26,476 nucleotides of DNA from Candidatus Kerfeldbacteria bacterium (GCA_903867845.1 CAIPSZ010000035.1:1-26476); one strand, 5' to 3'. Counted from the stretch's first letter, positions 21,944-25,881 are shown. The notes: a model not told the origin generated them from the letters alone. A program made the numbers and translations.

Positions 21944-22015
21944 GGTGCTGTGTAGATGTTCCTACCGACTTTCGTCATGAGGAACTTCTGTTTCTAGGCC
22001 GTCTACTCGGCGCCG
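21944..22015 (-). repeat. Stop-proximal pseudoknot-like element, copy 1
   Basis: GCCG-A-GUAGA-CGGC-CUAGAAACAGAA-GUUCCU...AGGAAC-A-UCUAC, then hairpin 21917-21938. Confidence 0.85.
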
Positions 22016-22025
22016 ACTGTCTGCC

Positions 22026-22811
22026 CTAAGCGGAGATACGATCCAGGGAAGCCCGGGTATCGTAACCCACTTCTAATCCAGCCATGAACACATGATGAAG
22101 TATCTCCTCAAGGAACTTGGTTAAGTCCTTGGAGAGCTCATTATCACCATTCACGGTGTTTGCAAGGAAAGTGTGAACGGCGTTCTGACTGATAGAGCGG
22201 ACAGGAGGCATCTGCAACGAAAGCTGCAAAAATGAGACCAGCCGAGTACGTTTGTCTGACTCATCTTCGTAGAGCTCCCGCTGCTTTGCCTCCGACTCAT
22301 CAAAGGTGAACAACACAGTGTACTCGCCGGTTAGGTTATCGCGAACAATCGCGATCCTATCCCAGCGAATTTCACTGGCGCTACCCTTGGGAGTTACTGT
22401 GGGCGTACTAGGCATAGAAATATCCTCCACTTTTGTAGGTTTAGGTTGGCGTTCTTTCACGCTAAGCGAGCGGAGTATTCTCACCGTGTCTGGACTAAAC
22501 TTGTCTTCAGACACGTGAATGTCCAACTTCAACCATAGTTTCGGGGCCGAAGAGTTACCGATGATTTGGATTCCGGGACATTCCCGCTGCATCCATTCCA
22601 CTAGCGCTCGCCCAAGCGATTCGCCTTTGTAGTACCCATCAAGCAGGACGATGTCTGGCTCTTCTTGCTTTACAAGCAGGGTCGCTTCGTTAAATGTCTT
22701 TACATCTTGTACTTTGCAAAATGTAAAATCTTTCAGCGACTCCGCAAATGCTTCAAGAAAGCGCGCGCCGTAGGTCGTGGCTTCGTCGTCAACGATTAAA
22801 ACTTTCTTCAT
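22026..22811 (-). CDS. Orphan response-regulator receiver-domain protein with unknown C-terminal region
   Basis: KVLIVDDE, PDIVLLDG, IIGNSS; own promoter TTGACA(22881-22876)-N17-TATGCT. Confidence 0.8.
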   Translation of the reverse strand: MKKVLIVDDEATTYGARFLEAFAESLKDFTFCKVQDVKTFNEATLLVKQEEPDIVLLDGYYKGESLGRALVEWMQRECPGIQIIGNSSAPKLWLKLDIHVSEDKFSPDTVRILRSLSVKERQPKPTKVEDISMPSTPTVTPKGSASEIRWDRIAIVRDNLTGEYTVLFTFDESEAKQRELYEDESDKRTRLVSFLQLSLQMPPVRSISQNAVHTFLANTVNGDNELSKDLTKFLEEILHHVFMAGLEVGYDTRASLDRISA

Positions 22812-23020
22812 TTTTCAACCCTCTCTATTTCTTTTTCTTTGTTTAACAGGGAAGCATATACAAGCTTTGAAATATTGTCAAGACTTTCCGACTAATTAGG
22901 TAAAAAAGGGGCTAATCTTAGCGATGTATCAATGCGAAATTTGTTATTATTTAGGAATAATATTGACATTATCTTATCCACAGCGTATACTGGAAATATC
23001 GTCGGAAATTATCGACATAT

Positions 23021-23761
23021 ATGGAAATACCAGAATTACTTGCGGTTTTCGGCCTAAACGAGAAAAAAACCAGTATCTACCTCGCCGCCCTAGAAATGGG
23101 CCCATCTTCCGCATTGGCCCTGGCTGAGCGAGCAAATATTAAACGAACGACCGTATACGACCTTATTGATGAGCTGAAACGCTTAGGGTTAATTACTGAG
23201 ACAATTCGGGGGAAGCGAGCGCGGTATGCGGCAACCGACCCTGATCGGCTGAAAGACCTGGTACGGCGACAATCTCTTGCCTTGGAAGTCCTCCTCCCCC
23301 AGCTCAAGGCGCTCTACAACGTCCCCGGGGTGAAACCAGGGGTCCGCTACTTCGAGGGTATCGCTGGAGTACAGGCCGCCCTTGAGGACACGCTCACCGC
23401 GCAGGACAAAACCCTCCTTGGAATCCTCTCCATGGAAGACCTCTACGAAACTATTGGTGAAGCGTACATGGAAGACTACGTGAAGCGCCGTATTGCAATG
23501 GGGTACAAGCTCCGAGTCGTTCGATCGAAAGAGAAAGAAGTTGCCAAGCGGTGGCCATCGAGCAAGAAGGAGAACCGCGACCGCCGGTACGCACCAAAAG
23601 GGTACGTCTTCGGCATGACGCAGTACGTTTACGACAATAAGGTCTTGCTGCTCTCGAGCCGCAAAGAAAACTTCGCCATGGTCGTGGAGAGCGCAGACTA
23701 CGCGCGGAACCAGCGACAGCTCTTCGAGGCGCTCTGGCAGGTGAGCCAGCCAGCACTGTAA
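23021..23761 (+). CDS. TrmB family transcriptional regulator
   Basis: FGLNEKKTSIYLAALEMG, wHTH IKRTTVYDLI, VRYFEG, YDNKV. Confidence 0.9.
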   Translation: MEIPELLAVFGLNEKKTSIYLAALEMGPSSALALAERANIKRTTVYDLIDELKRLGLITETIRGKRARYAATDPDRLKDLVRRQSLALEVLLPQLKALYNVPGVKPGVRYFEGIAGVQAALEDTLTAQDKTLLGILSMEDLYETIGEAYMEDYVKRRIAMGYKLRVVRSKEKEVAKRWPSSKKENRDRRYAPKGYVFGMTQYVYDNKVLLLSSRKENFAMVVESADYARNQRQLFEALWQVSQPAL

Positions 23762-23813
23762 ATAAAGTAAAATAGAAAAAACACCCAGTTATTCACTAAG
23801 TGCTTTTTACAAA

Positions 23814-23883
23814 GTGCTGTGTAGATGTCCCTACCGACTTTCGTCATGAGGAACTGCTGTTGCCACGTTGACTACCTCAACGT
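23814..23883 (-). repeat. Stop-proximal pseudoknot-like element, copy 2
   Basis: P1 replaced by ACGUUGA/UCAACGU around GGUAG; P2 GUUCCU/AGGGAC; terminator 23775-23803. Confidence 0.85.
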
Positions 23884-24095
23884 CTGACCATTGCAGCGAA
23901 CTCATCTGGTGTAATGATGCGGAAATCTAGGTCGAGGTATTCACGGTGGGAATCTTCCTCCATGACCTGCCTAAATTCTTTTTCATGTTCCGCATCGTAG
24001 GCGAGTCCAGCGACAACCCTACCTGTTCGAAACCAATATTTTGCTGTTTCGGGGTTATTGGTCAGAACCGTACTATCATTTAGAAAACAGTACAT
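23877..24095 (-). CDS. Hypothetical 72-aa acidic protein
   Basis: aaggag RBS before ATG 24095; MYCFLNDSTVLTNNPETAKYWFRTG... Confidence 0.7.
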   Translation of the reverse strand: MYCFLNDSTVLTNNPETAKYWFRTGRVVAGLAYDAEHEKEFRQVMEEDSHREYLDLDFRIITPDEFAAMVRR

Positions 24096-24195
24096 TATTA
24101 TCTCCTTATATAAGCACATTGTGTAATTTGCTTTTTCTCAAATGACCATTCATATGGTTTTCTGAGAGAAATGGTCCATCAGAAGATGAACCAAA

Positions 24196-24268
24196 GGTAC
24201 AGTGTAGATGTTCCCACAGACTTTCGTCATGAGGAACTGCTGTTACTAGGCCGTCTACATCGGCGCCG
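24196..24268 (-). repeat. Stop-proximal pseudoknot-like element, copy 3
   Basis: Near-identical to copy 1; the UAG stop of the upstream ORF lies in the P1 loop. Confidence 0.85.
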
Positions 24269-24422
24269 TCGGTCGTTGTGGCTTTTCGTTCCACCATTTT
24301 TCCATCTGAGCCTGCTCCTCAAGAACTACCTCTACAGACTTAGGAAACAGGGCTTCATGGAATAGCGGACAACGACGTTCCCAGTCTATACGGGCTTGTA
24401 GATACGTTTGCTCATCAAACAC
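24255..24422 (-). CDS. Hypothetical 55-aa protein
   Basis: Not in the ORF track. aggag RBS plus GTG; MFDEQTYLQARIDWERRCPLFHEALFPKSVEVVLEEQAQMEKWWNEKPQRPTAPM. Confidence 0.65.
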   Translation of the reverse strand: MFDEQTYLQARIDWERRCPLFHEALFPKSVEVVLEEQAQMEKWWNEKPQRPTAPM

Positions 24423-25166: not shown

Positions 25167-25272
25167 TTGTTCACTCCTCATTTTTGATTTTTTACTTTCT
25201 CTCAGATGACCAGCGGAACTTCAGTACGGGCCGAAGTCCGCATTTCTGATGTGATTGATCATCTGGGAGAAA

Positions 25273-25294
25273 GTTCTGTCACTACTGACAGAAC
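25273..25294 (-). terminator. Terminator-like hairpin with the same stem as 21917-21938
   Basis: gttctgtca-N4-tgacagaac followed by tttctc on the minus strand. Confidence 0.6.
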
Positions 25295-25305
25295 GGAAGC
25301 GCTGG

Positions 25306-25458
25306 CTACCGCTTGGTCCCAGTTGGAACGAAGATGTGCCGGCGTTCCAGGGCACGCTGCCCCGCGGGAACGGAGCCAAAGTAGCGGCCATCCCACGCAC
25401 AGTGCGCCTTCCGCAGCAGCCGAGTGGCTTGCTGCTCGAGCAATTTTCGAGAAATCAT
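25306..25458 (-). CDS. Hypothetical 50-aa basic protein
   Basis: agggagg RBS; MISRKLLEQQATRLLRKAHCAWDGRYFGSVPAGQRALERRHIFVPTGTKR. Confidence 0.65.
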   Translation of the reverse strand: MISRKLLEQQATRLLRKAHCAWDGRYFGSVPAGQRALERRHIFVPTGTKR

Positions 25459-25554
25459 TTTTACCCTCCCTTTCATTTTTTCCCAGGTAACCACCCCTAT
25501 CCCTGATTGCCTTGGAGAAAAACCCGTGTATTTATACTCTCAACGGGTGTTCGA

Positions 25555-25607
25555 GTAGGGATTTGGATTAATTGGTCCACTTCTGTTGCCAAGCTTTCCC
25601 CAGGCTC
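25555..25607 (-). repeat. Stop-proximal pseudoknot-like element, divergent copy 6
   Basis: GAGCCU-GGGGA-AAGCUU-GGCAACAGAA-GUGGA..UCCA-AA-UCCCU; same spacing, compensatory pseudoknot helix. Confidence 0.6.
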
Positions 25608-25613
25608 CGTTGT

Positions 25614-25703
25614 TTACAGCCACCTATGTATCGCTTCGGCGATGAGGCAGAGAACAACAACCAGTATGCATGCTACTGGGATCCAGCCACGACTGTATTT
25701 CAT
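25614..25703 (-). CDS. 29-aa single-TM peptide
   Basis: Not in the ORF track. ggtggtg RBS; MKYSRGWIPVACILVVVLCLIAEAIHRWL. Confidence 0.6.
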   Translation of the reverse strand: MKYSRGWIPVACILVVVLCLIAEAIHRWL

Positions 25704-25816
25704 TTTTCACCACCTTCCATACAGGTTTAAAAACAGTTAGTCTTTTTAGTTGAAGTATTGGAAATACTTTCTTCAGATGAAGTCCCGTTACATTTACACT
25801 CAAAACGGGTGATTGA

Positions 25817-25881
25817 GTTGTAGATGTTCTTCCGTCTTCGGCCAGAAGAACTTGCTGCGCCACGCCATCTACTAGGCGCCG
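25817..25881 (-). repeat. Stop-proximal pseudoknot-like element, copy 5
   Basis: CGCC-UAGUAGAU-GGCG, GUUCUUC/GAAGAAC P2, AUCUAC; overlaps the UAG UAG double stop. Confidence 0.8.

Follow-up and report, generated by a model that had tools for sequence, protein, structure and literature searches.

Near one end of a 26,476-nt stretch of DNA from a Candidatus Kerfeldbacteria bacterium (GCA_903867845.1 CAIPSZ010000035.1:1-26476; this whole stretch is called the window below), a structured RNA element stands at the ends of genes in and beside a co-oriented array of six small genes. Six copies, designated c1 to c6, are read on the minus strand; c2 to c6 belong to the array, and c1 follows a gene for a 261-aa receiver-like protein. 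A TrmB-family regulator gene diverges from the carrier of c1 and converges with the carrier of c2. The genes that carry the element encode two receiver-like proteins, a 29-codon hydrophobic open reading frame (ORF), a 195-aa secreted-looking protein, and small orphans. An earlier reading of this DNA, referred to here as the original prediction, had called the carriers unrelated to one another, and this is generally so, except that two of them share a weak receiver-domain match; these two receiver-like carriers are unrelated to each other beyond the receiver fold. Judged from sequence, the element is a new RNA family, absent from Rfam but of a broadly known kind, that of structured gene-end elements, with an unusual anatomy and a sharply defined genomic niche. 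To our knowledge, few structured RNAs are known from the candidate phyla radiation (CPR)/Patescibacteria, and almost none from bacterial 3' untranslated regions. Whichever mechanism holds, the element offers a compact, testable example of message-end organization in minimal-genome bacteria.

Reading of positions 21800 to 26476 located all six copies where the original prediction had placed them, and on the strand it had named. A covariance model (R1) made from c1 to c5 with helices P1 and P2 scores these copies at 65 to 98 bits (E values of 1e-17 to 2e-27). The same five form one repeat group of 67 to 95% identity in a repeat finder, and, folded singly, each of them shows both P1 and P2 (z-scores of -1.7 to -3.8). 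The diverged copy c6 reaches only 8 bits and was read directly; it is homologous despite this low score, by its identical linker, identical spacing, and c5-type downstream hairpin, and all five of its pseudoknot pairs are kept through changed bases. Neither the window nor the rest of its genome (964 kb in 195 contigs, 91% complete) contains a further convincing R1 match, and a looser structure-descriptor scan of the whole genome returned no additional copy. Against Rfam 15, only a tRNA (621-692, minus strand, 58.7 bits) passed the gathering threshold, and a cmscan of 21700-26476 at E ≤10 gave three chance matches, none of them a riboswitch or ribozyme. The original prediction, which knew of no riboswitch or ribozyme consensus that fitted, is thus upheld against that database.

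The element is 51 to 67 nt long. P1 is a 6-bp helix with a basal G-U pair, most often GCGCCG/CGGCGU, and is closed by a loop of 5 to 7 nt, usually AGUAGA. A nearly invariant, A-rich linker of 10 nt (consensus GNAACAGMA) leads into P2, which begins with a 6-bp helix, P2a (GUUCCU/AGGAAC), continues through a small CA/GU internal loop, and ends in a variable inner stem with a frequent GNRA cap. On the 3' side of P2 there follow one invariant A and a strand of 5 to 6 nt, usually UCUAC, that is complementary to the P1 loop. The predicted fold is an H-type (hairpin-loop-to-outside, or HLout) pseudoknot with an extra hairpin, P2, inserted in its long loop, and in this model the conserved A-rich linker is placed to line a helix groove.

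Five members were added from elsewhere, one each from a same-family genome (G008) and a same-class genome (G109) and three from metagenome contigs (L091, L127, and L128). The G008 copy (R1, 85.6 bits) follows an orthologue of the 186-aa receiver-like gene that carries c5, so that both orthologues bear the same element, while the L091 copy, from a metagenome pattern scan, follows an orthologue of the 80-aa gene. L127 was reached through homologues of the receiver-like protein in public contigs (53% protein identity); it has P1 GAGCCG/CGGCUU, a loop UAAUAC, the linker GGCAACAGAA unchanged, P2 GCUUCC/GGAAGC, and a 3' strand, GUAUUA, that is a perfect 6-bp complement of the changed loop. The G109 element, found with a second model (R2), has P1 AGGCGG/CCGCCU, a loop with GAUGA, the linker GGCAACAGAA, a different P2, and the 3' strand UCAUC. 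The L128 element is partial, with P1, the linker, and a short P2 present and the 3' strand missing. The linker string also occurs outside the element: UUGGCAACAGCGU is the loop of the G109 terminator (L142 5230-5265), and in L131 (about 4005-4025), a receiver gene that lacks a full element has GUAGCAACAGUCUAAG at its stop codon.

Across these members, the comparisons indicate that P1, P2, and the pseudoknot all covary as RNA helices. The pseudoknot occurs in four sequence versions, all of which pair: GUAGA/UCUAC, UAAUAC/GUAUUA (L127), GAUGA/UCAUC (G109), and GGGGA/UCCCU (c6). It can be said to covary because L127, G109, and c6 each have a changed loop together with a matching 3' strand; the probability that a fixed 5-mer complements the loop by chance is 0.002 for L127, 0.016 for c6, and, by the same rule, ~0.008 for G109. 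In a structure-guided alignment of nine copies (without G109, whose helices were read separately), 44 of the 45 pseudoknot cells are paired, with at least two pair types at every pseudoknot position, and P1 and P2a show similar pair variation. In a MAFFT alignment of eight copies, relatives included, 97% of cells pair and both sides change in 13 of 17 pairs; none of 500 shuffles equaled this covariation, and in a control in which the partner was slid by 1 to 3 columns, pairing was 34 to 52%. The functional strand is the mRNA strand because conserved G-U cells mismatch on the opposite one: ten G-U or U-G cells become mismatches there, including the G-U pair at the base of P1, present in 8 of the 9 copies, which would turn into C-A. 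The linker, for its part, survives in copies in which all three helices are altered (c6, L127, and G109).

The structural model of the original prediction (P1, linker, P2, loop-to-3' pairing, and mRNA strand) therefore stands, with members from other genomes that covary in all three helices. Its particulars were also recovered: the 17 nt from GUAG to P2 in all six copies, the change of P1 from GCCG/CGGC to GUUG/CAAC in c2, that of P2 from GUUCC/GGAAC to GUUCUUC/GAAGAAC in c5, the GGGGA/UCCCU pairing of loop and 3' strand in c6, and the GNRA loops in P2 (GAAA in c1 to c3, GGAA in c4). What emerges is a small family with unusually clean support, namely three covarying helices (one of them a pseudoknot), an invariant linker, and a strict stop-codon position.

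In all ten ORF-linked copies (every copy except L128), the element begins at a stop codon or no more than 19 nt 3' of it. In c3 and G008 the loop contains the stop, and in c2 and c5 the stop spans the end of P1; in the others it is upstream, by 6 to 7 nt in c6 and c4, 12 to 13 nt in c1, L091, and L127, and 19 nt in G109. The proposal that the carrier's stop codon falls near or in P1 is thus correct for all six copies in the window (0 to 12 nt 5' of P1, or inside P1 or its loop). A stable hairpin stands within about 8 to 14 nt on the 3' side of the element in 11 of 11 copies. Beyond it, c2 has a strong terminator and then the convergent TrmB gene, c1 and G008 have a separately promoted gene that encodes a small basic protein, G109 has a convergent gene, and L091 has a terminator close to the contig end. 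Since c1, c2, G008, and G109 are without a co-transcribed downstream gene and the L091 terminator is near the contig end, the element is not a leader, and this downstream context supports the earlier proposal that the module is cis-acting and belongs to the 3' end. By position, the element is a predicted cis-acting structured RNA at message 3' ends. Because the carriers share no metabolic theme, a generic mRNA module fits better than a metabolite sensor. What the loci do share is a TrmB regulator gene, adjacent in all five with enough context (the window, G008, L091, L127, and G109), and in this sense the element belongs to a single type of locus, in which small accessory genes neighbor a TrmB regulator.

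A stop triplet (UAG, UAA, or UGA) is present in the P1 loop, with its complement in the 3' strand, in three of the four pseudoknot versions (c1 to c5, G008, and L091; L127 at 1364-1369; L142 at about 5138-5144), and the GGGGA loop of c6 has none. The loop UAG is in frame in five of the seven copies that bear it; in c3 and G008 it is the real stop, and in c4, c5, and L091 it lies behind the real stop.

The distribution of the family was traced with R1 and R2 in 150 relatives and with R3 in 80 further genomes of the class and about 145 further genomes of the phylum. Among these roughly 375 other Patescibacteria genomes, G008 and G109 are the only ones with members, so that by these searches the family is real but rare and patchy. 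An exact-pattern scan of metagenomes gave 45 matches, of which 2 are real, L091 and L066, the latter being the G008 contig; the same kind of scan gave 23 matches in public genome contigs, about the chance number, and 13 in a viral collection, all scoring low by model. A 15-nt linker pattern had three extra matches in 400 class genomes, all within coding sequence and without P1. No relatives of the 261-aa and 80-aa carrier proteins were found in a word-indexed search, and no element was found at the loci of the TrmB homologues L145 to L151 (43 to 46% identity). The weak model matches L012, L014/L140, L137, L139, L141, L143, and L144 were rejected as members, having no linker plus pseudoknot; genome G097 (L014/L140) has a lone P1-like hairpin with UAG in its loop.

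The hairpins behind the element differ from the original prediction in one respect. They had been described as terminator-like, usually with a U-rich tail, and c2 and c6 do have real U-tracts, but c1, c3, c4, and c5 have none, and the label "terminator" is wrong for about half of the copies. The intrinsic-terminator form, a hairpin with a direct U-tract, is found behind c2, c6, G008, L091, L128, and G109 and not behind c1, c3, c4, or c5. After c1, c3, and c4, and likewise after the 62-aa gene, the U-rich tail forms the 5' arm of another, long stem that abuts the first hairpin (z-scores of -3.3 to -8.2). The element itself is not an intrinsic terminator; true terminators follow it at operon ends (c2, G008, L091, L128, and G109), and those behind the element are of at least four unrelated types. 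On the fold models, the four long stems behind the post-element hairpins look like RNase III processing stalks, and the 18-pair duplex behind c4 looks like an RNase III substrate. The stop of the 62-aa gene is the loop UAG of a P1-like hairpin (AAGCG, loop GUAGCCAG, CGCUU), which is directly followed by a c1-type hairpin (repeat family D15); going by these features, the P1-like hairpin may be a remnant or minimal form of the element. The long-loop hairpins after c5, c6, and L127 can form a second pseudoknot, in which ACUCAA/UACUC on the 3' side of the element pairs with the loop UUGAGU/GAGUA.

Table 1. Features of the element-bearing locus and of related contigs (window positions unless a contig is named)
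Feature	Position	Strand	Details
Copy c1	21952-22013	-	R1 98 bits; carrier, 261-aa receiver-like gene, stop 22026-22028, 12 nt 5' of P1; P1 GCGCCG/CGGCCU; loop AGUAGA; linker AGAAACAGAA; P2 GUUCCU..AGGAAC with GAAA-capped inner stem; A; UCUAC
Copy c2	23821-23883	-	R1 87 bits; carrier, 80-aa gene; UGA stop 23877-23879 is end of P1 5' arm plus loop start; P1 ACGUUG/CAACGU, compensatory relative to other copies (pair table)
Copy c3	24204-24266	-	R1 91.7 bits; carrier, 55-aa gene; stop is UAG within loop GUAGA, 24255-24257
Copy c4	24523-24586	-	R1 92.3 bits; carrier, 195-aa secreted-looking protein gene, stop 24594-24596, 7 nt 5' of P1; inner P2 stem GGUU/GACC, GGAA loop
Copy c5	25820-25879	-	R1 65 bits; carrier, 186-aa receiver-like gene; UAG stop 25872-25874 is last P1 base plus loop, loop UAG next, in frame; P2 GUUCUU/AAGAAC
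Copy c6 (diverged)	25557-25607	-	Read directly; 6 nt 3' of stop of 29-codon hydrophobic ORF; P1 GAGCCU/AAGCUU; loop GGGGA; linker GGCAACAGAA; P2 UGGA/UCCA; A; UCCCU
Hairpin after c1	21917-21938	-	No U-tract; abuts longer hairpin 21878-21917; from fold
Recurrence of c1-type hairpin	25275-25292		Repeat family D15
Intrinsic terminator after c2	23776-23808	-	Strong; 14-pair stem, U7; faces 3' end of convergent TrmB gene
Hairpins after c3	24136-24193	-	First 24172-24193; second 24136-24167, z -4.5, 5' arm is the U-rich "tail," upstream of next gene's ribosome-binding site
Hairpins after c4	24451-24511	-	24492-24511, abutted by 18-pair stem 24451-24491, z -5.1
Long-loop hairpin after c5	25784-25809	-	CCCGUU..AACGGG; same type after c6 (25522-25548) and L127
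Second-pseudoknot sites	25784-25815, 25522-25556; L127 about 1425-1470	- (window)	
End of 62-aa gene	25194-25310	-	P1-like hairpin 25295-25310; hairpin 25275-25292; long stem 25194-25274; z -8.2
Long near-perfect stems	21878-21917, 24136-24167, 24451-24491, 25194-25274	-	Upstream of next ribosome-binding site
Co-oriented six-gene array	23877-26432	-	186, 29, 62, 195, 55, and 80 codons
TrmB-family regulator gene	23021-23761	+	Pfam PF01978
49-aa very basic protein gene	21488-21637	-	Downstream of c1; own promoter 21665-21692
PNPase gene	3428-5746	+	RNase PH, KH, and S1 domains
CTGTT/CTATT motif sites	26433-26476, 22812-22881; L011 905-940; L091 about 575-625; L127 about 740-760; L142 4300-4345	- (window, L091)	

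As to function, we tentatively prefer a 3'-end protection and processing module, a reading suggested by the sequence that we would not be surprised to see displaced. The element and the hairpin that always follows it would together make a nuclease-resistant 3' cap. In the six-gene array, whose only strong promoter (11/12) lies at the contig end (26449-26476), transcription from this single start would read through the U-poor hairpins, and cleavage, probably by RNase III, would follow in the long duplexes immediately 3' of them. This would leave every upstream cistron with a hairpin plus pseudoknot at its end to halt 3'-to-5' decay by PNPase, and at operon ends the same module would precede a true terminator; the outcome would be a protected 3' end for each cistron of its own. 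Genes for RNase III and RNase J were found in the genome, and one for PNPase lies within the window itself (Table 1); a search of the genome, 91% complete, gave no RNB (RNase R/II) domain. PNPase stalls at stable structures, as at repetitive extragenic palindromic (REP) elements and in the malE-malF case. The REP elements, the bacterial interspersed mosaic elements (BIMEs), and other intercistronic stabilizers such as that of E. coli malE-malF are among the similar known systems, all of them repeated extragenic structures right after stop codons in operons. Stem-loops of this type block 3'-to-5' decay and give cistrons different stabilities. REPs, however, are simple palindromes with hundreds of dispersed copies and a tie to RAYT transposases, whereas the present element is a covarying pseudoknot with a conserved single-stranded linker, in six copies within 4 kb of one contig. 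The GTAG/CTAC motif that the two share is a superficial likeness; here the GTAG is part of a hairpin loop, where L127, G109, and c6 instead have AAUAC, GAUGA, and GGGGA, respectively, each matched by a compensating partner. If the element does block PNPase or RNase J, it could also serve as a useful means of stabilizing transcripts.

Several points weigh against the protection and processing module. Its read-through, cut, and nuclease resistance are inferred, and a look for RNA-seq runs that contain the sequence listed none. A plain hairpin already blocks PNPase, and the conserved linker and pseudoknot suggest instead a binding partner, catalysis, or a ligand. A passive barrier explains neither the strong conservation of the linker nor the recurrence of its string in the G109 terminator loop and in the L131 mini-hairpin, and for this reason a factor-binding tag stays in play. 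Within the array, the 62-aa gene is the only one without a full element. Members in G008 and G109 alone among the roughly 375 other genomes are a very low frequency for a generic stabilizer. Finally, the receiver homologues L128 to L131 (41 to 48% identity) have no element at their own 3' ends, only a terminator; L128 instead has its partial copy upstream of its receiver homologue. The original prediction had left four functions open (a 3' exonuclease block or stability element, a termination-coupled switch, a self-cleaving RNA, and a cassette-mobility site); of these, the last is the least supported, and none is demonstrated.

The element could instead be the binding site of a trans-acting factor, protein or RNA, for post-transcriptional co-regulation of the tagged TrmB-linked operon genes, with the pseudoknot serving to display a single-stranded GGCAACAG linker. 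We consider this unlikely but worth serious weight: the linker is the most conserved part and persists where all three helices have changed (c6, L127, and G109), the GGCAACAG string is also displayed in the G109 terminator loop, the L131 receiver gene, though without the full element, has CAACAG in a mini-hairpin where it stops, and the same neighbor, a TrmB regulator, recurs at all five loci with enough context. Yet no candidate RNA-binding protein was found, and TrmB proteins are DNA binders. The receiver-like protein was considered as the RNA-binding partner and set aside, as its structure model is a plain receiver fold (predicted local distance difference test [pLDDT] score of 81) for which a PDB search gives receiver domains only. 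Nor is the element an ANTAR target, which consists of two hexaloop hairpins with A1/G4; the loops here are AGUAGA and GNRA or variable, and the receiver-like proteins have no ANTAR match. Pairing between the 5' and 3' ends of the mRNA, of the CTGTT after the -10 box with the AACAG of the linker, was also rejected, in that G008 and L127 have CTATT with AACAG unchanged and no compensation. That the element is a self-cleaving ribozyme of a new class, or a noncircular rearrangement of the pistol fold, that cuts the operon RNA at every gene end, is from its sequence improbable. Its 51 to 67 nt, pseudoknot, and invariant junction nucleotides do fit heuristics for picking ribozyme candidates (PMC10085705), and several copies among small unrelated genes are frequent for bacterial ribozymes (PMC4604425). 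The layout is also pistol-like: a pseudoknot of 5 to 6 bp takes up the whole P1 loop, next comes an A-rich linker (AAACAG here), and the pair of stacked stems has a 2-nt GU on the right, 3' side in six copies (c1 to c4, G008, and L091), in an RNA of about 60 nt. The pistol ribozyme (RF02679) has a strictly 2-nt right-shoulder junction, usually GU, which is the cleavage site (PMC4604425), but this GU is AU in L127 and is missing, with the whole internal loop, from c5, c6, and G109. Moreover, only CA forms the left junction of the element, and whereas pistol needs the 3' strand of the pseudoknot to be in the P2/P3 left junction, here this strand follows P2 in the 3' tail. A threshold as relaxed as E ≤10 brought up no Rfam ribozyme model, RF02679 included, a permuted hammerhead was rejected for want of a CUGAnGA core (PMC10085705), and most such candidates fail in vitro; in the same study, 10 of 10 further motifs tested for self-cleavage did not cleave (PMC10085705). 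If the ribozyme reading were nonetheless true, the element would be a Patescibacteria-specific ribozyme class and a case of catalytic-RNA gene-end punctuation in a bacterial operon.

A barrier facing the other way, against the 5'-to-3' exonuclease RNase J, overlaps the 3'-cap reading and differs from it only in direction. Acting in the manner of viral exonuclease-resistant RNAs (xrRNAs), it would either let message decay stop at a stable remnant of ~110 nt (the element and its terminator) or protect the cistron downstream. The genome has an RNase J gene, the L128 element is the 3' end of a short promoter-to-terminator unit without a convincing gene, and the geometry is that of an H-type pseudoknot in which the P1 5' arm enters first and the linker covers the groove. 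Such geometry resists 5'-to-3' translocating machines in frameshift pseudoknots and xrRNAs. We nevertheless hold this barrier to be a poor prospect, since the ring-like fold or three-way junction of solved xrRNAs is lacking. By analogy, the element and xrRNAs are both compact pseudoknotted folds within 3' untranslated regions and could stop a processive exonuclease unaided by protein, but the ring around the 5' end and the three-way junction are not evident here, and the setting is a bacterial chromosome, not a virus (PMC8374639, PMC5760640). A switch that senses a ligand or translation and tunes the hairpin or terminator behind the element, and hence read-through to the next gene, strikes us as more doubtful still. 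In its favor are invariant bases at a three-helix junction and a topology like that of the preQ1-II riboswitch (RF01054), in which, likewise, an HLout pseudoknot joins P1 loop and 3' tail, an inserted hairpin precedes the 3' strand, and the groove is crossed by an A-rich linker; in addition, P1 must be melted by any ribosome that terminates at it or immediately 5' of it, so that folding could report translation. There is, however, no sequence or covariance-model match to RF01054, the element follows stop codons instead of standing in a 5' leader, its 3' strand is UCUAC, GUAUUA, or UCAUC and not a Shine-Dalgarno sequence, and no queuosine gene is linked to it. No conserved alternative pairing with the terminators was seen, these being of several unrelated types, the carriers lack a metabolic theme, and in several copies nothing lies downstream to regulate. 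The stop-to-P1 distance, which ranges from inside the loop to 19 nt, speaks against a recoding or read-through signal, and a recoding signal (frameshift or read-through) was rejected on this lack of fixed spacing. Least probable of all, and very much so, is a DNA-level site of recombination or cassette mobility that moves gene-plus-element modules between TrmB loci. The array does bring together modules that occur beside TrmB in other genomes (the receiver gene with the element in G008 and L127, the 80-aa gene with it in L091). In addition, conservation has its 5' edge, CGGCGCC, at or within the ends of ORFs, and five of the seven loop UAGs are in frame. As with integron attC sites, the element follows ORFs in a co-oriented array of small unrelated genes and is conserved in sequence within the array. 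But attC is a single long imperfect DNA-strand hairpin with RYYYAAC/GTTRRRY cores and an adjacent intI, an anatomy absent here: no GTTRRRY core was seen on either strand and no integrase gene in 21.4 to 26.5 kb, the island itself having no recombinase gene. Strand-specific G-U pairs and covariation indicate RNA, six copies at one locus are unlike REP or miniature inverted-repeat transposable element (MITE) families, and ordinary homologous recombination at a conserved RNA element would yield the same pattern. A type III antitoxin RNA was dismissed, the copies not being tandem.

Some minor features accompany the element. In all element-bearing operons, CTGTT or CTATT, followed by (A/C)AA(A/C)G, stands 3 to 5 nt after the -10 box (Table 1); the motif is absent in L129 and L131, both without the element, and by its sequence and placement is probably a TrmB operator or a start-site motif. 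The 49-aa very basic protein encoded downstream of c1 has a 43-aa homologue in G008, in the same position (L011 1671-1802). In L128 (1-350), the promoter region is tandemly duplicated (1-52 and 296-350) and flanks a unit of ~240 nt that has the partial element and a terminator at its end and an ORF of 19 codons at most. Downstream of the L091 terminator (1-215, read on the minus strand) lie several GC-rich palindromic repeats around CCTCTCC...GGAGAGG.

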